Below, one piece after another: positions 4,567 to 19,603 of a stretch of 21,318 nt of DNA. A model generated the notes under the pieces. The model ran no database searches, had not been told where the DNA came from, and worked only from the letters and a program-made list of their open reading frames with translations. This stretch comes from Thermoplasmatota archaeon. Lineage in GTDB: Archaea; Thermoplasmatota; Penumbrarchaeia; Penumbrarchaeales; Penumbrarchaeaceae. Where the stretch lies: assembly GCA_029762535.1 (NCBI GenBank), contig JARVGK010000044.1, positions 1-21,318 of the forward strand. Reading direction: 5' to 3'. Each line of letters begins with the position of its first letter. Position 1 is the first letter of the stretch. The position numbers were made by a program, and so were the translations under genes.

Positions 4567-6939
4567 ATGATCGTAAGGAGCATCGATCTGACGTCAAACG
4601 ACCTCGTGGTCGGGGACAGGGTAGATATAATGATCGGTGAGGCGGACCTGAGATCGGGCGAGGATGGTTCGATCCGTATGACCATGATCGCTGGAAAGCC
4701 CGTAGGGGACCTTTCCGTAAGGTCACTGATAGGCTTCTCCAGTTCACGCTTGGAGATGTCCAGTACTGAAGAGGGGTGCGAAGGTACGCTCAACCTCGTT
4801 GCGAACGGAGATCCTGGAGATGCCAGGATCGAGATCACCTTAAGGACGGGGGATGTCGGGGCCACTGCCGGGACCGCATTGATGGAAACGAGGATCGGTG
4901 AAGGGTCCATGGGGATCGAGCTTTCGGAGATCCCCGTACATTGGAACGGCAATGAACCCATATCGATACCTCTCATCTTGAGCTCCCGGTCGAAGGTCAA
5001 AGGCAGGCTCGTGGCGCTCTTGAAAGATACCGGGGATACCCTTTTGAACACCAGCGTATCGTTCAAGGGAGAACATCATCTGTCGATCCTTCTGGACCCG
5101 TCAAAAGCACACGACCTGGAGAGAATGGACATACTTGTACGTTTCACCTCCGGGGATCGGAAGGAAGAGGTGTTGTTCGATGGCGCCGTTTTGCTGGATC
5201 GTATCCCTGATGACCCAAACCCCATACCGGAGATGCTCACAGCAGGGGGGGAGATGGACATTGGGTCCATGGGAAACGGTTTCACCAGTGCCACCCTCAC
5301 GGCGGAGAAGGACCGGACCGTTCTGAAGGCGATCGAGGGAAGGGAGGGAAAATGGGTCCGCATACCCGAAGAGGCAAGAGGGGAATACACGCTGGAACTC
5401 GAGGGACCACATGGCAGGATGATGAAAAAGATCTCGATAGATCCCATACCTCCGTTCCAGCATCTCTCGGTCACCGCCGAAAAAGAGAGCGTCATGTCCG
5501 GGGATGAACTGGACCTGATGGTCCATTTCGAACCCAATGAGACTTCGGACCAAGAGCTTCGCATCAGGATCGGCCATGACAGGCGCATGTTTTTGAGAGC
5601 GCACCTGGATGGACAGAGAACGAGGATGAGATGCTCCCTCAGCGTGCCTCCGGACCACCCTCCTGGTCCCCAACCGGCCATTATCGAGGTATTCAAGGAT
5701 GGGGGCTCCGTCCACAGAGAGGTCGTTGCCGGTTTCATCAATATCATATCATCGTTGTCCCTTCCCGTTGCATTGGAATTGCCGGAACGGGGCAAGCATC
5801 AATATCTTTTTCCGGGTGAATCGGTCAGGGTGGAAGGGTCCTTGGGGCCGTTGAGATGCCTCGAACTCACCTCCGGCAGACGCCTCCTCGCGCTGGAGGG
5901 TTCCACTTTATGGGGGATCGGTTGGAAGGAGGAGGACACGGAAAGAACGCTGGAACTGTACCTTGAATTCCTCTACAGGGACGCCCTGAGGGATATGGAG
6001 AGGGCAAGGTCCATCAGGCAAGGCGCCTTGAGGCAGATGGCCTGCGCCGAGGAAGCCATCTCCTCAAGGCCGACGCCGAATGGAGAAGCGCCGATCGTAT
6101 CTTGTTCCTTCAGATCGATGGCATCGGGAAAGGACCCTAACGAACTATCGAAAGCGATCGCCTCATTCAACGGATCGCTCCTGTCCGGTCGTTCGCTGCT
6201 AGAGGGCTTCGACGCCAGGAACTCCGCTAGAGAATTGGTTGAATCGGTCGTGAGGTCCCTCAAAGGGTATCGGTCATCCTCCACTACCCACACCATTGCG
6301 GCGATAAGGGACGCTGCGAAGGGGATCGAGGACGCTCTGAGAGAGCTCCGTTCTGTTCCTGAGGATCCCAGGGGCCTGATCACGAAGACATTGGACCTGC
6401 TTGTTCATGGATCGCTCCTGCAGATAGAGCTCTCATCCGTGTGGACCGATCCGGCCATATCCTCCTGGGATGATCTGAGGACGCTGCGACAGAGGTACAT
6501 CAAGCGTTCGATACAATGCGCTCTCGACGGCCTTGAGGCCCTGGCCTCGATCCACGCACGAGCCGGAGGGAGGATAAGATCTTTGAGGAACAACATGGAA
6601 GTGAGGAGAGCCCTAAGCTCGACCCGGGAGATCATTTTGAAGGGGACACCTCTTCTAAAGGCCACCGGGACGGGCTCATTGAAGGGGGAGATCGAGATCG
6701 TCCCGGGCCCGTTGAAGGTGGAATCGGACGTTTACGTCTTGAACCCCTCCCCATCGTGGCAGCTGATCTCACCTCTTTCCACGCGCGACAGGACAGGGCA
6801 CTTCATCGGACGCTACGAACTGGACCGCGGACATCCTCTAAGGATCGAGCTGGAGCTCATTCCACCTCAGGGCTCGTTCACGGGATCCCCCGCGATCTTC
6901 ATAAGGCCATCGAGGTATTACCTGGAGGAAGAACCGTGA
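4567..6939 (+). CDS. Large hypothetical protein (beta-sandwich-rich N-half, helical middle, beta C-terminus)
   Basis: 790-aa ORF starting 6 nt after the nadX stop. No signal peptide or TM segment and no recognisable catalytic motif. Confidence 0.8.
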   Translation: MIVRSIDLTSNDLVVGDRVDIMIGEADLRSGEDGSIRMTMIAGKPVGDLSVRSLIGFSSSRLEMSSTEEGCEGTLNLVANGDPGDARIEITLRTGDVGATAGTALMETRIGEGSMGIELSEIPVHWNGNEPISIPLILSSRSKVKGRLVALLKDTGDTLLNTSVSFKGEHHLSILLDPSKAHDLERMDILVRFTSGDRKEEVLFDGAVLLDRIPDDPNPIPEMLTAGGEMDIGSMGNGFTSATLTAEKDRTVLKAIEGREGKWVRIPEEARGEYTLELEGPHGRMMKKISIDPIPPFQHLSVTAEKESVMSGDELDLMVHFEPNETSDQELRIRIGHDRRMFLRAHLDGQRTRMRCSLSVPPDHPPGPQPAIIEVFKDGGSVHREVVAGFINIISSLSLPVALELPERGKHQYLFPGESVRVEGSLGPLRCLELTSGRRLLALEGSTLWGIGWKEEDTERTLELYLEFLYRDALRDMERARSIRQGALRQMACAEEAISSRPTPNGEAPIVSCSFRSMASGKDPNELSKAIASFNGSLLSGRSLLEGFDARNSARELVESVVRSLKGYRSSSTTHTIAAIRDAAKGIEDALRELRSVPEDPRGLITKTLDLLVHGSLLQIELSSVWTDPAISSWDDLRTLRQRYIKRSIQCALDGLEALASIHARAGGRIRSLRNNMEVRRALSSTREIILKGTPLLKATGTGSLKGEIEIVPGPLKVESDVYVLNPSPSWQLISPLSTRDRTGHFIGRYELDRGHPLRIELELIPPQGSFTGSPAIFIRPSRYYLEEEP

Positions 6940-8027
6940 GCTGTGATATCGACACGCTTATCAGAGAGTATCTCTCATTTAGCAATTACAGACATGGCAG
7001 ACAACCTCTGGATGGGATGGATCCCGCGTCGAGGATACGCAGGTCCATTTGGAGGGACGAAGGTGTGGATATCGAAGCAATGACAGGAAAGGGTATCGAC
7101 GATGGCGACCCGATGAACTTGGTTATGGAGATAGGAAAGGCGAACGTGAGGGTCGGATTCCTCCGTAGAAAAAAGGAGAGGATGTTCATAAAGGGCCTCG
7201 CCGACCCCGAAAGGATCCTGGAGAAGTGGACGGACCTCAGAGGACTCTTACTATCCTCCCGTCTCCTTTCAGTTCCGCTCATCCTCAAAGAAGGAAGAGG
7301 TTTAACGGATGCTATCGCTAGCATGTCCATCCCTCCTTCCGCTCAATCCGAGACCTTCTCCCTGGAGCCGGTAGGACGATCTCGACCTTCGGCATCCCAT
7401 GGGACCGCGGAGGAGGACCTTTCCATTTTCGATAAAAGAACGGCCAGGGACCGTGAGCTCGTCCTGAGAGGGGGCCGTAGAGTGAACGACCTCTCGTCGC
7501 TGATAATCGCAGTGATGGAAATGAAGGATGAAGAGCTCTCCGAACTGCTCTTGAACGGGACCCTGACAGGCTTTGCCCGAAAAGGGCTTGGATCCCCCTC
7601 CCTTGAGGCAATATTCACGGAATTGTCAACGGACAGGGACGCAGTGGACATGAAAGGTGTTCGTCAGAGGTTCGGTCTGTGGCTTATGGAGGGTCCTTTG
7701 GGGGCGAGAGCGGTGAGCGAAGTGGTGACGCCCCTGCTGGGTCGAATGGAGAAATGCGGGAGTAAGGAGGCATACCGGATCGCAAGGATGCTCGATCCGC
7801 TCATGGACGAGCGGTCCGCCCAGATAATCCTGGATATGATGTTCAGGGCGCCGCCGGCCAACAGGCCTCCGATGATCAGGCTGCTCTCATCCACGATGTC
7901 CGACATTGCTGTGGACCCCCTTACCAAGCTCGCCGAGATGAGTCTCGTTGATTCGGACAGGAAGGAGGCGAAGATGGCCCTTGAAAGGATGGGCATCGGA
8001 CGGGTCAGGTCTGAACAACGACTATAA
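6936..8027 (+). CDS. Hypothetical protein with C-terminal HEAT-like repeats
   Basis: GTG at 6936 overlaps the upstream TGA (GTGA) and follows a GGAGG SD; 363 aa. C-terminus AVDPLTKLAEMSLVDSDRKEAKMALERMG fits the HEAT/PBS-lyase pattern. Confidence 0.75.
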   Translation: MSCDIDTLIREYLSFSNYRHGRQPLDGMDPASRIRRSIWRDEGVDIEAMTGKGIDDGDPMNLVMEIGKANVRVGFLRRKKERMFIKGLADPERILEKWTDLRGLLLSSRLLSVPLILKEGRGLTDAIASMSIPPSAQSETFSLEPVGRSRPSASHGTAEEDLSIFDKRTARDRELVLRGGRRVNDLSSLIIAVMEMKDEELSELLLNGTLTGFARKGLGSPSLEAIFTELSTDRDAVDMKGVRQRFGLWLMEGPLGARAVSEVVTPLLGRMEKCGSKEAYRIARMLDPLMDERSAQIILDMMFRAPPANRPPMIRLLSSTMSDIAVDPLTKLAEMSLVDSDRKEAKMALERMGIGRVRSEQRL

Positions 8028-11789: not shown

Positions 11790-11994
11790 GAATGACCCCC
11801 GGAATTCCCCCGATACACCTATTGTTATAAAAACCCTGACGACCGGCTCGTGATAAAAAAGATATGCTCCTCCTCAACGAAAACCTCGACCGTTGTGGAA
11901 ATGTATGTATGCTTCGAATTTGGAACGATCTCGACGGCTATCTCAATGTTGTTAAATATCCGATCGTCCCATATCAAGAGCTGGAGGCTTTGAC

Positions 11995-14900
11995 CTGATC
12001 CTATCGCCCAGAGAGCTCGTTCCTCTCGTTCACGTTCTCAAGGGAGCGAGAATGTCTGTAGAGGACCTTGCCGATGCTTTAGGAGTATCCAAAAGGCATG
12101 TCCTCAGAACATGTTCCTTGCTCGAATCCAGAGGCCTGCTGGTCAGGACCAAAAATGGTGATGAGTATATGGTCGAAGCAAGGTCCGATGACCCTCTGAT
12201 CGTGAACCTGGGATCATTGATGGGGTCCTTGGACGCGTCCGCCATGATCGCTATTCTCGACAGGTCTAACGCTCTTCTAACCTTATCGGCCTTGGGGTGT
12301 GGATCATGGACGATCGACGCCCTCATCAAGTTCATCGATTGCTCAAGGTCTTCCGTTTATCGCACGATAGAATTCATTGAACGGGTCCTTCCCGGGGCCA
12401 TGATCAGGGATGGAAGGAGATCGTCCTTGCTCCGTTTGAACCACGAATTGGAGTATATGGATCCCCTGATGAAGCTGGCAAAATCGGTCCATCCATTGGA
12501 AGGCATCGATGGAATGGAGGACATGCTCTTAAAGGAGATCACAACGGTCCGGTCAAGGCTCGTCCTTCATCTTTTCCGGTACCCGGATCCCGGTGACCGA
12601 TACAATGCCCCGGTGGAATTGACCCAGAGGTTCATAACCAGGACACTTAGGACCAGCCAGCCCCTGATTAGCCGGGAGCTCAAGGACCTGATGGACAATG
12701 GTCTGATCGAAAAGACTCGGTTGAGGGTGCCTGGTTCGAAGAAAAGGGAGAACTCATACCGCCTTACGGAAAAGGGATGGAACGAAGGCGAACGCCTGAT
12801 GGAAAAGGCAAAAAGGTCCATGGTGGACCTTATCGACATGGATGGTGTCCAGGTCCGGGTGGCACTGACCGAGGTTCCCAATATGAGCAGGGTCTGCATA
12901 GACCTGAACGACGTTCTATATCATGCGGGATACATGAGGCCTCTGGTACTGGATAGGATCATGAAGGAGGCGGAGGCCCTGAGGGAGATGGATTTCATCA
13001 AGGGAATAAGCGGGACCTCCGTACCGGAGGACCTCTTCGGAAGGAAAAGGGAGGAAGAGGAATACCTAAAATGGCTGGAAGGGAAAGAGGGCACATTGCT
13101 GGTGATAGGGCCACCGGGCATAGGTAAGACCGCATTCATCTCACAGATGCTCAAGGGAACCAGGTCCGATCATATTGTATTCTCTCATGCGCTTAATGAA
13201 TGGAGCTCCCCTGGTTCGTTCATGAAGCATCTCTCCATCTTCCTGAAGGAGGATGGTATCCGCCATTGCTTTACGGATCCATCACCCAAGGGATCGATGA
13301 GCCTCAGGGAGCAGGAGATCATGTTCGAGAGGATGATCACCGGAACCAAGGTCCTCATTTGTCTGGACGATTCACATAAGATCGCCCCCGTGATGAAAGG
13401 CTTCCTCCTGAAGGTATTGTCCCTCTCCGGAGAAAATTCGAAGGTCGTCCTGGTCGGCAGGGAGAGACCAAAGGACCTGCCAATATCGAATTCTTGCCGT
13501 GTACTGAAGCTGGGAGGTCTGGACCTGGGATCCGCGATGTCGCTGCTTCAAAGGTCTGGCGGCCCGGTGGGCGACCTTGAAAGGATCCACGAGATCACAG
13601 GCGGCAATCCCTTGGCGATAAAACTCATCGCAAGTATGCACACAAGGGATTACGACGACCTTGGATCCCTGATCGAGCGGGAGATGATGCCCAACATATC
13701 GGCTAGGGATATGGAACTGCTTAACTTCCTGAGCGTTCTGAGGTATCCTTTCCCGCCTGTCGTAATGAACTATCACTACATCGACGACGGAGTTAGACCA
13801 TTGTTCAGCCTCGAAAGGTCCAGAAAGCGCATGGAGGATCTCAGATCAAGGTCGATACTGACCCACAGCGGGAACCTGTATCGTATGCATGACATAATAA
13901 GGAACCATTTCCTCAAGATAATGGACCATGAGACGCGTTGCAGGGCGAACAGGGCGGCATCGAAATACTACCTTGAACTCGAGAACGACCCCGCCCGGAT
14001 CGAGGCGCTGCATCAACTGCTGTCCTCTGGGGATACGGAAGGGGCGATGACCCAAATCGTGGAACTTGGAATGCCGCTGATCAAGAGGGGATATGCGGAT
14101 GAGCTGCGAGATGTCCTGTCCTTGATGGACCCAGCTGAAATGCCGTTGAAGCTCTCCCTGGAATACCATCATATCCTTGGAGAGGTCCAACATGTGATGG
14201 GAGATTGGGAATCCGCGATGAAGAGCTTCAGGAAAGCGTTGGAAGTGTGCGAGGAGATAGGCGAAACCGGGATGAAAACCAGATCGAAGATCATGCTTGC
14301 CAGACTGCTGATGCTCAGGGGCAGGTCCTCGGAGGCGATCGAGATGTTCCGAAGGACACTTGACCTCTCAAGGGCGAACGGGCAGTTCATGCACGAATCG
14401 TTCGCCGTTCGCCAGCTTGGATCGATATATTATCTCATGGGTGACAACGAGAACGCAAGAACATGCCACGAGAGGTCCCTTGAGATCGCCAGGATAACCA
14501 GGAGCAAGGAGTGCCTTGCCAACGCATATTTTCTGGGATCGCTGTTGAAGAGGCTGGATGGGGACAACGAAGGATGCGAGATGGAGATCAAGGCCGCCAT
14601 GGCGATATACGATGAACTCGGCGATACGATACAGAAATTGAAGCTTATAAACAATCTGGGATGGCTCTACAGCCTTCAGGAGAGATGGGAGGAATCCCTC
14701 GAGCTTATGGAGGAGGTCCTGGAGATGGCCACCTCCTGCAGCGACCTGGAGAACATCGGATACGGGCTACTCAACTCCGCGGATATTCTCATCCGTTTGA
14801 AGCGTTACGATGAGGCGAAGGGAAGGCTGGAAAAGGCCGAGAGGCTGTTCCACCGATTGGAGGACATGAGGCTGATAAGTTCGACCGAGTTCACTTTCGC

Positions 14901-15153
14901 ACAGCTTTACACCGCAACGTCCGAATGGGATGATGCCGCGGAACGGTTCGACAGGTCCATAGAAGGATACGAGAAGCTCGGGATCCTCAACCAGCTGCCG
15001 GAGCTCTATTTCTACTACGGTAACATGGAACTCGGGAGAGGGGATCGGGAAAGGGCGAAAGAGTTGTATGTTTTGGGTCTGAAGTATGCCCGGAGGATCA
15101 AGGATTCTTCCTGGTTGGAGAAGATTACGGATAGGTTATCCTCGCTCCATTAA
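11995..15153 (+). CDS. STAND (NB-ARC/AP-ATPase-like) regulator: 3x winged-HTH, P-loop NTPase, TPR array
   Basis: FGRKRE pre-P-loop; Walker A GPPGIGKT (~13108-13131); Walker B VLICLDD (~13351-13371); LVGRE sensor; GGNPL (~13600); MHD (13885-13893); ~400 aa of TPRs. First ATG is at 12052; the proposed start is the CTG at 11995. Confidence 0.88.
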   Translation: MILSPRELVPLVHVLKGARMSVEDLADALGVSKRHVLRTCSLLESRGLLVRTKNGDEYMVEARSDDPLIVNLGSLMGSLDASAMIAILDRSNALLTLSALGCGSWTIDALIKFIDCSRSSVYRTIEFIERVLPGAMIRDGRRSSLLRLNHELEYMDPLMKLAKSVHPLEGIDGMEDMLLKEITTVRSRLVLHLFRYPDPGDRYNAPVELTQRFITRTLRTSQPLISRELKDLMDNGLIEKTRLRVPGSKKRENSYRLTEKGWNEGERLMEKAKRSMVDLIDMDGVQVRVALTEVPNMSRVCIDLNDVLYHAGYMRPLVLDRIMKEAEALREMDFIKGISGTSVPEDLFGRKREEEEYLKWLEGKEGTLLVIGPPGIGKTAFISQMLKGTRSDHIVFSHALNEWSSPGSFMKHLSIFLKEDGIRHCFTDPSPKGSMSLREQEIMFERMITGTKVLICLDDSHKIAPVMKGFLLKVLSLSGENSKVVLVGRERPKDLPISNSCRVLKLGGLDLGSAMSLLQRSGGPVGDLERIHEITGGNPLAIKLIASMHTRDYDDLGSLIEREMMPNISARDMELLNFLSVLRYPFPPVVMNYHYIDDGVRPLFSLERSRKRMEDLRSRSILTHSGNLYRMHDIIRNHFLKIMDHETRCRANRAASKYYLELENDPARIEALHQLLSSGDTEGAMTQIVELGMPLIKRGYADELRDVLSLMDPAEMPLKLSLEYHHILGEVQHVMGDWESAMKSFRKALEVCEEIGETGMKTRSKIMLARLLMLRGRSSEAIEMFRRTLDLSRANGQFMHESFAVRQLGSIYYLMGDNENARTCHERSLEIARITRSKECLANAYFLGSLLKRLDGDNEGCEMEIKAAMAIYDELGDTIQKLKLINNLGWLYSLQERWEESLELMEEVLEMATSCSDLENIGYGLLNSADILIRLKRYDEAKGRLEKAERLFHRLEDMRLISSTEFTFAQLYTATSEWDDAAERFDRSIEGYEKLGILNQLPELYFYYGNMELGRGDRERAKELYVLGLKYARRIKDSSWLEKITDRLSSLH

Positions 15154-15266: not shown

Positions 15267-15276
15267 GGTGGGTCAA

Positions 15277-16089
15277 ATGGCAAAGAGACAGATAATAAAT
15301 ATCGATCATGAACTCTGCAACGGATGCGGGGCATGCGTTCCCGACTGCCCCGAAGGTGCGATTCAGATCATCGACGGCAAGGCGCATCTCATATCGGATA
15401 TTTTCTGCGATGGGCTCGGAGCGTGTTTGGGCACTTGTCCCGAGGGAGCGATCTCCACCATAGTTCGTGAGGCCGAGGAATACGACGAGAAGAGGACCAT
15501 GGAGAACATCGTAAAGGGTGGGCCGAACGTGATCAAGGCCCATCTCAAGCATCTCAAGGACCACGGGCAATGCGCCTATTTCGACCAGGCCCGGGAATAC
15601 CTCAATGAGAAGGGGATCGATGTCCCCGAGATCGAGGAGGAGACGCTTCCGTGCGGATGCCCCGGAACCGAAATGAGGGTCATCGATGTCAAAGGGGAAG
15701 GGGGATCAAAACAGAATGAGGCGAGATCGGAATTGAGACAATGGCCTGTCCAGATCCATTTACTCCATCCCAAAGCGCCATTTCTGGACAATTCCCACCT
15801 GCTGCTTTTATCCGACTGCGTGGCCGTGGCGAACCCCAACGTTCATTCCCAGTTGATACACGGCAGAACGGTGGCCATGGGATGCCCCAAGCTCGACGAC
15901 TCCGGGGCATATATCGAGAAACTCACAGGGATCCTCGAACAGAACCGGATCAAGTCCATAACCGTGGCGGTGATGGAGGTCCCCTGCTGCTCGGGAATGG
16001 TCAGGATCGCCAGGGAGGCGATCAGCAGGAGCGGAAAGGAGATCCCCCTGATCGTGGAGACGATCTCCGTTGATGGCAGGGTGCTGTGA
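15277..16089 (+). CDS. 4Fe-4S ferredoxin-domain iron-sulfur protein
   Basis: CNGCGACVPDCP and CDGLGACLGTCP; CGCPG; SELRQWPVQ; GCPKLDD; MEVPCC. This family of anaerobes is often found near hcp. Confidence 0.88.
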   Translation: MAKRQIINIDHELCNGCGACVPDCPEGAIQIIDGKAHLISDIFCDGLGACLGTCPEGAISTIVREAEEYDEKRTMENIVKGGPNVIKAHLKHLKDHGQCAYFDQAREYLNEKGIDVPEIEEETLPCGCPGTEMRVIDVKGEGGSKQNEARSELRQWPVQIHLLHPKAPFLDNSHLLLLSDCVAVANPNVHSQLIHGRTVAMGCPKLDDSGAYIEKLTGILEQNRIKSITVAVMEVPCCSGMVRIAREAISRSGKEIPLIVETISVDGRVL

Positions 16090-17838: not shown

Positions 17839-18524
17839 TGCGATACCCCCATGGAGAAGGCCATGTCCCTCAATCCCTCGTGAACAGGCCTCTCGTCATC
17901 CTCCAACTTCACATCGTAAGATGTGCAAACGGACCTGACCAGCTCGTCCATCCGGCGGTTGTCAACGACAACCCCCTCGATCCTGTGAATGCCTTTATCA
18001 TTCAGAAGGCCGGGTATCATCAGGGATAGGTCCCTAACGTGAAGATATTCCTTCGACCCTTCCCTCAATTCCAGGTCCTCTCCCGCCAGATATTTCCTGA
18101 ACAGCCTCGGAACGAGCTTGTCATGCGTATCCCCGGCCCCGAAGACCGAGGGGCATCTAATGACCAGATTGTCCGGATCCCTCAGGACGATCCTCTCGGC
18201 CTCGATCTTGGACCTTGCATACGGGGACAGGTCATCGCTCTCGACGTCAGTGGACGAGAGCAGTATCATCTTCGACCCGGAGTATAGGTCCATGACGTTC
18301 TTTGTACCATCCACGTTGACCTCGAACAGTTCGGGCGTGTCCCAGTATCTCCTGTCCACCAGGGATGCCATGTGCAGCACCGCATCGAAAGGCCCCTCAT
18401 CGAAGGTGGATACGTCCCTCACATCCCCGGAGAACTCGGTCACCTCATGGCCGGAGGCCTTCAAGGCCCCGACCACGTGCGGACCGATGAAACCTATGGT
18501 GCCCGTGCAGAGTATCCTCATCAT
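17835..18524 (-). CDS. NAD(P)-dependent epimerase/dehydratase/reductase (extended SDR, short form)
   Basis: ILCTGTIGFIG, VLHMAS, NVDGT, LSST, YARSK. ATG at 18524 overlaps the upstream TGA; 229 aa. Confidence 0.9.
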   Translation of the reverse strand: MMRILCTGTIGFIGPHVVGALKASGHEVTEFSGDVRDVSTFDEGPFDAVLHMASLVDRRYWDTPELFEVNVDGTKNVMDLYSGSKMILLSSTDVESDDLSPYARSKIEAERIVLRDPDNLVIRCPSVFGAGDTHDKLVPRLFRKYLAGEDLELREGSKEYLHVRDLSLMIPGLLNDKGIHRIEGVVVDNRRMDELVRSVCTSYDVKLEDDERPVHEGLRDMAFSMGVSH

Positions 18525-19603
18525 AATTCCTTCATCAGGCCCTCGTATTCGGCGACCTTGGCCTCTATCTCGCTTTTGTGTATCAGGACCGGGATCACGT
18601 CTATTCCCCTTATCCAGTGCATGTCCTTCTGGCAGGGGTTCATGACGCCGAATGGACCGTCGTACTCGCCGAAAGCGAGCTGTACGAGTATCTGCGGCAT
18701 GTTGCATCCTGTCCTAGTGATGAAGTGATGCGTGGTGAAGAACTTGGCGATGTTTATCTCGGTCGGATTGGGGAAACCCTCCCTGTCGTAAGTGAAATCC
18801 ACGCTGAAGATCCCGTGGGGCTTTTTATCCGCCGATCCTATGCATTTAATGGACAGCTCGTCCAGGAGGGGATCGGATATCGTTGTCCCGGTCCCCGTCA
18901 ATCCGGTGACGCCGGATTGCGCTCTGTTCGAGAATGCCCAGTACTCCCTCTTCCTGCCCTGGGCGACAACAAGCTCCCCTTCATACCATATGGACTGCCA
19001 TGTGGTGGTGTCCGAGGTGAGATGCTCCGCCGCCACGGTCCTGCCCCAGGCGTTCCTCGAATTTATGTGGGCCAGCGCCATCTCGTAAGTGGGTCTGGAC
19101 AGGGATCCCTTCCCCGCGGCTCCGACCGTTTCTCTGATCCAGATGTCCTCACCGAACCGCTCGAAGGCACGCTTCAGGTCCTCTTCGTTGTTTATGTCCA
19201 TGTTCTCGGGGACCTTCAATCCGGCATTTTTCCAAACATAATAGGACCTCGACTTGTCCCTGAGGAGCTCGATCGTATCCTGATCAGGCATGAACAGCCT
19301 GCATCCGGTCTCCATTATCTCTTTTCGGTGTTTCCCTATGACGTAGGCCTCTATCTCGGGCTGGGAATGGAGGAAGTCGATCCCTTCTTTTTCTATGACG
19401 TGCTTTATGAACGGAATGTAGTTGGGATCGTCCGCCCTCGGACAAAGATATGTTCTATCCACCTCCGAGCGGTGTATATTGTAGCGGTCGCAGTCCGTCC
19501 CCACGATATAGTATTCCTCTTTTTTGGGATCCGCATCCCTCAGGCTTCTGGTGAAGCTCAGGGTGGATGGGCCCCCGCTCGCCGTCGTCAGGATCCGCTT
19601 CAT
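18521..19603 (-). CDS. ATP-grasp protein (CarB/PylC-like carboxylate-amine ligase family)
   Basis: Pre-ATP-grasp domain (ILTTASGG, IVGTD, PRADDPNYI), DK, Gly loop GAAGKGS, FSVDF, PTEIN. Confidence 0.85.
   Translation of the reverse strand: MKRILTTASGGPSTLSFTRSLRDADPKKEEYYIVGTDCDRYNIHRSEVDRTYLCPRADDPNYIPFIKHVIEKEGIDFLHSQPEIEAYVIGKHRKEIMETGCRLFMPDQDTIELLRDKSRSYYVWKNAGLKVPENMDINNEEDLKRAFERFGEDIWIRETVGAAGKGSLSRPTYEMALAHINSRNAWGRTVAAEHLTSDTTTWQSIWYEGELVVAQGRKREYWAFSNRAQSGVTGLTGTGTTISDPLLDELSIKCIGSADKKPHGIFSVDFTYDREGFPNPTEINIAKFFTTHHFITRTGCNMPQILVQLAFGEYDGPFGVMNPCQKDMHWIRGIDVIPVLIHKSEIEAKVAEYEGLMKEL

Follow-up and report, generated by a model that had tools for sequence, protein, structure and literature searches.

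We analyzed a window of 21,318 nucleotides (nt), comprising the whole stretch of the Thermoplasmatota archaeon contig JARVGK010000044.1 under study, and concentrated on one gene within it that encodes a STAND NTPase (Table 1). A preliminary description of this DNA had proposed three tandem winged helix-turn-helix (wHTH) domains, an intact NTPase, and a long array of tetratricopeptide repeats (TPRs), and had regarded the gene as a candidate for an undescribed system. The domain architecture was borne out in each of these parts. The three-wHTH protein is, though, a rare new variant of a known, structurally characterized archaeal regulator family, and not an undescribed system. A single long frame covers the locus on the forward strand, open throughout from the TAA at 11953 to the stop codon at 15151-15153. 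Residues are numbered such that residue 1 corresponds to window position 11995.

A STAND protein with three winged-helix domains

In order to examine the N-terminal region, we built an AlphaFold2 (AF2) model of residues 1-345 on an alignment of 15 sequences, which consisted of 14 full-length family members and one 280-residue fragment. The model, with a mean predicted local distance difference test score (pLDDT) of 86.4, contained three complete winged helices, each with a helix-helix-helix-strand-strand topology, at residues 5-62, 91-148, and 185-257, connected by helical linkers. All of the peptides quoted earlier for these domains were present: SVEDLADALGVSKRHVLRTCSLLESRGLL at residues 21-49, TIDALIKFIDCSRSSVYRTI at 105-124, and LTQRFITRT...YRLTEKG at 209-261. 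Two of the three domains scored above their Pfam thresholds (wHTH1, HTH_Crp_2, 42.5 bits; wHTH3, MarR_2, 44.6 bits). In the window protein, wHTH2 remained below threshold (HTH_29, 23.5 bits vs. a cut-off of 28.1, E 5.9e-5), and its assignment is backed by conservation and homology. Three family members match HTH_29 at this position (E up to 1.6e-6), and its homologue in a nucleotidyltransferase family, described below, passes the TrmB threshold with 35.9 bits. The wHTH2 recognition helix, SRSTxYR, is the most conserved N-terminal stretch across the 15 aligned sequences; of the eight invariant residues that the N-terminal region contains, it holds two, S117 and R123. Conserved recognition helices were found family-wide in all three domains (xRHASR in wHTH1, SRSTxYR in wHTH2, and QxxISKELK in wHTH3). 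Thus, the concern that the first two domains might lack support did not materialize, as both are backed by structure prediction and by profiles or conservation. The small domain that links wHTH3 to the NTPase carries two residues that are invariant in the family, D281 and L308, and is conserved jointly with wHTH3 in the paralogues.

Table 1. Features of the STAND gene and its upstream region in window coordinates (H, helix; E, strand; H and E ranges in residue numbers)
Feature	Position	Strand	Details
Whole STAND gene	11995..15153	+	1052 codons + stop; probable CTG start 11995; first ATG 12052
TATA-like box TTAAATAT of STAND gene promoter	11952..11959	+	Read directly; ~36 nt before CTG 11995
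Shine-Dalgarno-like GGAGG	11983..11987	+	7 nt ahead of CTG 11995; AGAGG at same position in relative L001
wHTH1 (residues 1-64), MarR/TrmB/Crp-like	11995..12186	+	AF2 H5-16, H22-29, H33-45, E49-54, E57-62; Pfam HTH_Crp_2, HTH_11, HVO_A0261_N
wHTH2 (residues 91-150), recognition helix SRSSVYRTI	12265..12444	+	AF2 H91-101, H107-114, H118-131, E136-139, E145-148
wHTH3 (residues 185-275), PadR/MarR-like, with C-terminal helix	12547..12819	+	AF2 H185-194, H211-218, H222-234, E238-244, E251-257, H259-274
Small alpha/beta linker domain (residues 276-340) between wHTH3 and NTPase	12820..13014	+	AF2 E276-280, E286-290, H291-297, H304-311, H319-340
Nucleotide-binding domain	13027..13509	+	Walker A GPPGIGKT (13108-13131), Walker B LICLDD (13354-13371), GRE (13456-13464)
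Helical domain and STAND winged-helix domain	13510..13923	+	GxP motif GGNPL (13600-13614); MHD (13885-13893)
Arm (HD2) helices (residues 644-712)	13924..14130	+	AF2 H645-662, H665-677, H681-697, H701-708; by analogy with PH0952 arm; boundary approximate
TPR sensor	14131..15150	+	17 helices, period ~40 residues, ~8 TPRs + cap; Pfam and AF2

The full-length AF2 model (pLDDT 84.1, predicted template modeling score (pTM) 0.69) placed a Rossmann-type nucleotide-binding domain (NBD), a helical domain (HD), a winged-helix domain (WHD), four arm helices, and the TPR helices C-terminal to the linker domain. Each of the NTPase motifs listed in the preliminary description was found where it had been reported, namely GPPGIGKT at residues 372-379, LICLDD at 454-459, GRE at 488-490, GGNPL at 536-540, and MHD at 631-633. 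The general hallmarks of STAND proteins are therefore all present: Walker A, Walker B, a sensor arginine, GxP in the HD, and the conserved histidine (MHD) in the WHD. Across the 14 family members, the switch motifs vary little or not at all, with the G, K, T, DD, and R residues invariant. These intact motifs argue for a predicted working ADP/ATP switch. The long TPR array was likewise supported by both Pfam and AF2, which agree on approximately eight repeats (TPR_12, 1.5e-31; TPR_MalT, 45.1 bits; AF2 helices at residues 718-1051 with pLDDT ~90). The array runs to the last residue of the window protein in the model, and it matches the TPRs of LGN/Pins in Foldseek.

We then placed the protein by its core, using a profile of residues 340-700 from 14 sequences that was searched against all PDB sequences. 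The top match was 6MFV, the "tetratricopeptide repeat sensor PH0952" of Pyrococcus horikoshii (E 4.3e-33, 315 profile positions), followed by the plant nucleotide-binding leucine-rich repeat receptor Roq1 (E 6e-8) and then by Cdc6, NRC1, CED-4, and MalT. Foldseek with the full model gave the same first match (6mfv_A, E 1.3e-18, 721 columns), with the MalT core 8bob_C (TM 0.74, root-mean-square deviation 3.8), Apaf-1, and CED-4 thereafter. We assign the protein to the PH0952 clade of STAND NTPases, its core being nearest to PH0952 by both the profile and the Foldseek ranking.

Reading frame and translation start

The start of the gene had been placed at 11995. The frame is open at this position and the 19 codons ahead of the first ATG are conserved, but the codon itself is CTG rather than a canonical start. 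A canonical start codon is first reached with the ATG at 12052, which would yield a protein of 1033 residues and falls within wHTH1; the window sequence has no in-frame ATG, GTG, or TTG between the stop at 11953 and 12052.

Comparison with other family members was informative here. The nearest relative is represented by the syntenic metagenome contigs L001 and L002 (72% identity). In L001, a TTG lies exactly at the codon aligned with the window's CTG, with no ATG further down, and the open frame reaches back to a TGA located five codons before that position. At the protein level, the 19 codons that precede the ATG are retained (PRELVPLVHVLK in the window and PRDLIPLIHVLK in L001), showing synonymous or conservative changes only. 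Other members either begin with an M just before helix 1 of wHTH1 or have an open frame in which a canonical start is found at that point, and all seven of the other family loci that we checked have a canonical start in an open frame upstream of helix 1. The Pfam wHTH models align with the ATG-started protein only from profile position ~22, such that helix 1 is absent, and adding the 19 residues lifts the scores from 37 to 42.5 bits for HTH_Crp_2 and from 26.8 to 35.4 for HVO_A0261_N. Based on the Pfam coverage of helix 1, the relative's TTG and conserved codons, and the starts of the other members, we predict that translation must begin near 11995. Either the full protein would be made from the weak CTG start, or a product with a truncated wHTH1 would be made from the ATG at 12052.

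Because translation would begin near 11995, wHTH1 is cut off in the public gene calls for the window protein (994 residues) and its nearest relative (1006 residues), both of which start inside or after this domain. Gene callers repeatedly start genes of this family inside wHTH1, as seen at position 7001 of L031, at 12052 of the window, and in the public records P0003, P0004, and P0126 (994, 1006, and 1059 residues). With the first winged helix cut or missing, the three-wHTH architecture is hidden in database records.

A different explanation for the unusual codon is that the window copy is decaying or down-tuned, with an ancestral TTG changed to CTG, and that it yields little or no full-length protein, or only the ATG 12052 product without helix 1 of wHTH1. 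This explanation can coexist with any reading of the protein's function, and it is favored by the absence of a canonical start upstream of 12052, the TTG at the aligned position in L001, the canonical starts in the seven other loci, and the long branch (1.02) of the window/L001 lineage. However, apart from its start the 1052-codon frame is undamaged and retains every motif, and the GGAGG is ideally spaced ahead of the CTG. CUG initiation occurs in prokaryotes at low efficiency, and the CTG may also be a consensus error of the metagenome assembly. We consider decay unlikely on balance.

Upstream, the TATA-like box falls in a block that is kept in L001, and the middle of the spacer has diverged. 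An imperfect inverted repeat (ATTTGGAACGATC at 11918-11930 and GATCGTCCCATAT at 11962-11974) flanks this box; in L001 its arms have changed, and the GGGAC...GTCCC pairing is retained. It is a possible autoregulatory operator, a candidate that rests on two sequences only and is indistinguishable from chance.

Distribution and origin of the additional domains

The single-wHTH form of this protein is widespread. Frames of 750-1000 residues headed by wHTH3 and the linker domain were found in all 37 of the genomes searched in the class, with 3-13 matches per genome, and the single-wHTH frames that were extracted align through the STAND core. Three such paralogues are present in the window's own genome at 25-26% identity, and wHTH3 also aligns with the lone wHTH of the 800-900-residue relatives P0005, P0006, P0009, and P0049. 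Of the 37 class genomes, 4 carried the three-wHTH form, as did 4 of the 401 genomes in a sample of the phylum. An exhaustive phmmer search with residues 20-349 against 1.84 billion representatives returned approximately 12 clusters of 1040-1067 residues that align end to end; all are metagenomic, and the named ones are labeled "Thermoplasmata archaeon." The suggestion of an undescribed system thus fails for the base architecture, which is that of the crystallized PH0952 clade and occurs in every class genome searched. A widespread, already characterized family had itself been named as the outcome that would overturn this suggestion; the base architecture is indeed such a family, and the triple-wHTH form is not.

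The domains differ strongly in net charge, which is +9 for wHTH3 (family mean +8.1), +2 for wHTH1, and +3 for wHTH2. Since wHTH3 is strongly basic and common to all of the paralogues, it is predicted to be the ancestral DNA-reading head.

To trace the other two heads, we computed a maximum-likelihood tree of the region from wHTH3 to the WHD for 35 sequences, of which 14 were three-wHTH proteins, 17 were single-wHTH paralogues from the class, and 4 were more distant. The tree was midpoint-rooted, with the root used for drawing only. The 14 three-wHTH proteins formed one group (100/99 support), within which the window/L001 lineage sits on its long branch, and a single change sufficed in 100% of the bootstrap trees. 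Because these proteins form one supported group, the tree fits a single gain of the wHTH1-wHTH2 module at the N-terminus.

The likely source of this module can also be recognized. The wHTH1-linker-wHTH2 segment is homologous to the first ~160 residues of a 378-residue wHTH-wHTH-nucleotidyltransferase protein (hhalign 99.1%, E 1.1e-18, 161 columns), which differs from the window protein in having a C-terminal Pol-beta-type nucleotidyltransferase in place of wHTH3, STAND core, and TPRs. Its family comprises at least 30 clusters of ~370 residues in Thermoplasmata and one in Altiarchaeota, and is annotated as [quoted passage not shown] Weaker copies of the module, either stand-alone or in small open reading frames (ORFs), were found in 18 further genomes of the phylum. 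Given its homology to the front half of the nucleotidyltransferase family and these separate copies, the two-wHTH module is, as far as sequence comparison can tell, a pre-existing cassette fused to a PH0952-type regulator. The gene of the 378-residue protein (L037 4666-5802, G006:C47, in another genome of the class) lies between UbiD-like and aconitase X genes.

Predicted function and relation to known systems

The reading that we moderately favor is that the gene product is a cytoplasmic signal- or ligand-gated transcription regulator of the PH0952 clade. We base this prediction on the basic wHTH3 and the conserved recognition helices, the intact switch motifs, the conserved TPR sensor, and the lack of any defense assignment or context. 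It agrees in general terms with the earlier proposal of a one-component sensor with a DNA-binding output.

By analogy with PH0952, MalT, and Apaf-1, the protein would rest as an ADP-bound, closed monomer, kept shut by contacts of the arm and TPR with the NBD. Binding of a ligand to the TPR sensor would lift this autoinhibition, upon which ADP would be exchanged for ATP and the core would open and multimerize. The multimer would gather the DNA-binding heads and place them on arrays of sites at target promoters. The additional wHTH1 and wHTH2 domains would most likely make extra contacts with DNA, so that the operator would be longer or composite.

Several observations weigh against this reading. 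"Transcription regulator" is itself a prediction for the PH0952 clade, since DNA targets, ligands, and phenotypes have yet to be demonstrated for any of its members. The basic character of wHTH1 and wHTH2 is only mild, and tandem winged helices also bind protein or RNA, which is the case for RPC62, SelB, and ScpB among the top structural matches. The lack of a canonical start means that the window copy is possibly poorly expressed or N-terminally truncated. Pfam NB-ARC (PF00931) falls below its gathering threshold for the window protein (14.7 bits vs. 23.5, E 0.019); all 14 family members match it at E <= 0.1, with a best value of 1.4e-11, which fits a family adjacent to, but outside, NB-ARC proper. 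No neighboring gene is conserved across the family loci examined. Finally, 9-mers common to the upstream regions (~200 nt each) of six independent family members were sought on both strands with one mismatch allowed; only TATA-like words turned up (4 of the 6 members), no more often than in shuffled controls (3-5).

Since no neighbor is conserved, the targets probably lie in trans or differ between lineages. In the window, the STAND gene is accompanied by genes for aIF5B, MBF1, a ferredoxin-type 4Fe-4S (Fer4) protein, and DUF4870. The infB-mbf1 operon had been put forward as a candidate target, a proposal that finds no support at the level of the family: the divergent aIF5B-MBF1 arrangement is shared only with the 72%-identical relative L001, and five other family members have unrelated neighbors. 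Contexts elsewhere include PolB, metallophosphatase, and HSP20 genes; a giant CarboxypepD_reg protein and an S12-S7-EF2-EF1A-S10 operon; giant PKD and beta-helix proteins; and Zip transporter, PGK, and HTH-PAS genes. We also considered the palindrome GGAATTCC in the aIF5B leader as an operator and rejected it, as it is broken in L001 (GGAATGCC).

A few further features of these neighborhoods were recorded. Large secreted-type proteins are encoded adjacent to or near the STAND gene in four of the loci examined (L031-L034), a candidate association that has no counterpart beside the window's gene. They comprise an fn3 protein near the gene in L031, a divergent CarboxypepD_reg protein of 1240 residues in L032, a divergent PKD protein of 1437 residues with a downstream NosD/beta-helix protein of 1296 residues in L033, and a Big_7-type protein within 7 kb in L034. 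The Fer4 gene downstream of the STAND gene (15268-16089) is missing from the syntenic L001 (11021-11057), where DUF4870/MamF_MmsF follows directly, and represents an indel between close relatives. At 4567-8027, the window contains two overlapping ORFs of 790 and 423 residues without a Pfam match at E <= 0.1, which are syntenic in L001 as ORFs of 790 and 365 residues. On the reverse strand at 18521-19603 is an ATP-grasp protein gene whose sole match is PylC-like_N (E 3e-8), in a three-gene cluster with genes for an SDR epimerase-like protein and a HAD hydrolase.

Alternatively, the protein could still be a PH0952-type regulator that reads DNA through wHTH3, with wHTH1-wHTH2 binding a protein partner, RNA, or a small ligand, or packing on the core as an autoinhibitory or input module. 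The low net charge of the two domains relative to wHTH3 and the nature of the top structural matches, which are protein- or RNA-binding arrays, speak for such a role. The best Foldseek matches of the N-terminal model are tandem winged-helix proteins (RPC62, the SelB C-terminus, ScpB, TFIIIC tauB, SarS, and AtxA). In addition, another family carries this module joined to a nucleotidyltransferase, where it may target an enzyme rather than regulate at a promoter, and the fairly high pTM of the full-length model is compatible with a packed arrangement. Against this, both domains have the complete three-helix and wing topology with conserved recognition helices, and SRSTxYR is typical of the DNA-reading helix of HTH_23/28/29/resolvase-type domains. 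We regard a role other than DNA reading as doubtful.

A more far-reaching proposal is that the oligomer acts as a hub with three DNA-binding heads per protomer, or 18 or more per ring, and serves not as a classical promoter-specific factor but as a signal-triggered DNA-bridging or nucleoid-organizing switch, or that the extra heads form a second, nucleic-acid-sensing input. Such a DNA-bridging switch or nucleic-acid-sensing input, if true, would be a STAND output mode undescribed in any domain of life, but we rate it as very unlikely.

Highly improbable, lastly, is the earlier suggestion of an Avs-like infection sensor with no nuclease effector. In such an Avs- or NLR-like reading, the TPRs would recognize a viral protein and the oligomer would act on DNA through its winged helices, for example by silencing or compaction. 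A STAND core with a TPR-like sensor is the Avs design, Avs3 is among the Foldseek matches (rank 23), and the base family is expanded in each class genome, as is often the case for immune receptor families. However, PADLOC identified no Avs or other STAND defense model in the window, only generic TPR and weak Csa3/CasR HTH matches, and Pfam found no nuclease, protease, TIR, or SIR2 domain in the window protein. No defense or mobile-element genes stand beside any of the six family loci, and synteny between relatives places the STAND gene in a housekeeping setting. The nearest relatives are PH0952 and MalT, not Avs. When the window protein is compared with its 72%-identical relative, evolution has been slowest in the TPR sensor (87% identity) and faster in the heads (48-62%, with wHTH1 lowest at 48%), whereas an arms race would be expected to leave the sensor as the most diverged part.

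Among predicted archaeal transcription factors, PH0952-type STANDs make up the largest class and the one least understood, for which a structure exists while the ligand, operator, and regulon are not known. The triple-wHTH subfamily shows that the effector end of these STAND proteins is built in a modular way and can be extended when an existing double winged-helix cassette is captured. A three-headed protomer should also have a long composite site, and DNA affinity purification sequencing (DAP-seq) would locate such a site more readily than that of a single wHTH.

Among known systems, Avs1-4 resemble the window protein in having a STAND core with a TPR-like sensor and oligomerize upon ligand binding, as is predicted for the window protein, but they bear nuclease, protease, or other killing effectors and are located in defense islands. 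AfsR/SARP-NB-ARC-TPR proteins of Streptomyces and bacterial XRE-HTH-NB-ARC-TPR proteins share the order of an N-terminal DNA-binding domain, a STAND NTPase, and TPRs, and many of them are weak matches to the window protein, mostly over the TPRs. They differ in carrying one head each, either an OmpR-type wHTH with BTAD or an XRE HTH. Pfam and NCBIfam detected no SARP, BTAD, XRE, or Trans_reg_C domain in the window protein, and the AfsR model covers only the TPR region at 709-855. MalT of Escherichia coli is closer, with a STAND core, an arm, a TPR-like sensor, and a ligand- and ATP-driven multimerization that activates transcription, and Pfam TPR_MalT reaches its threshold in the window protein (45.1 vs. 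45). MalT is nevertheless bacterial and has a single C-terminal LuxR-type HTH, and the window protein scores 15.2 bits against the NCBIfam MalT cut-off of 537.

The closest system is PH0952, crystallized by Lisa et al. (2019, PMC6468293), who presented it as a predicted transcription factor of archaea with a wHTH-NOD-arm-TPR architecture and double autoinhibition through arm and sensor-NBD contacts. In their placement, its clade and APAF1 are sisters and MalT is basal. Like the window protein, PH0952 is archaeal and presents an N-terminal winged-helix effector, an NBD-HD-WHD core, an arm, and a TPR sensor in the same order, and its GHPL and VHD motifs align with GGNPL and MHD. The identity is only ~17% in the structural alignment, and PH0952 has one ArsR-like wHTH, with its NBD beginning at residue 102, whereas the window protein has ~345 residues with three wHTH domains and a linker domain ahead of the NBD. 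The wHTH-NOD-arm-TPR base architecture is thus already known, and novelty is confined to the two additional wHTH domains at the N-terminus.

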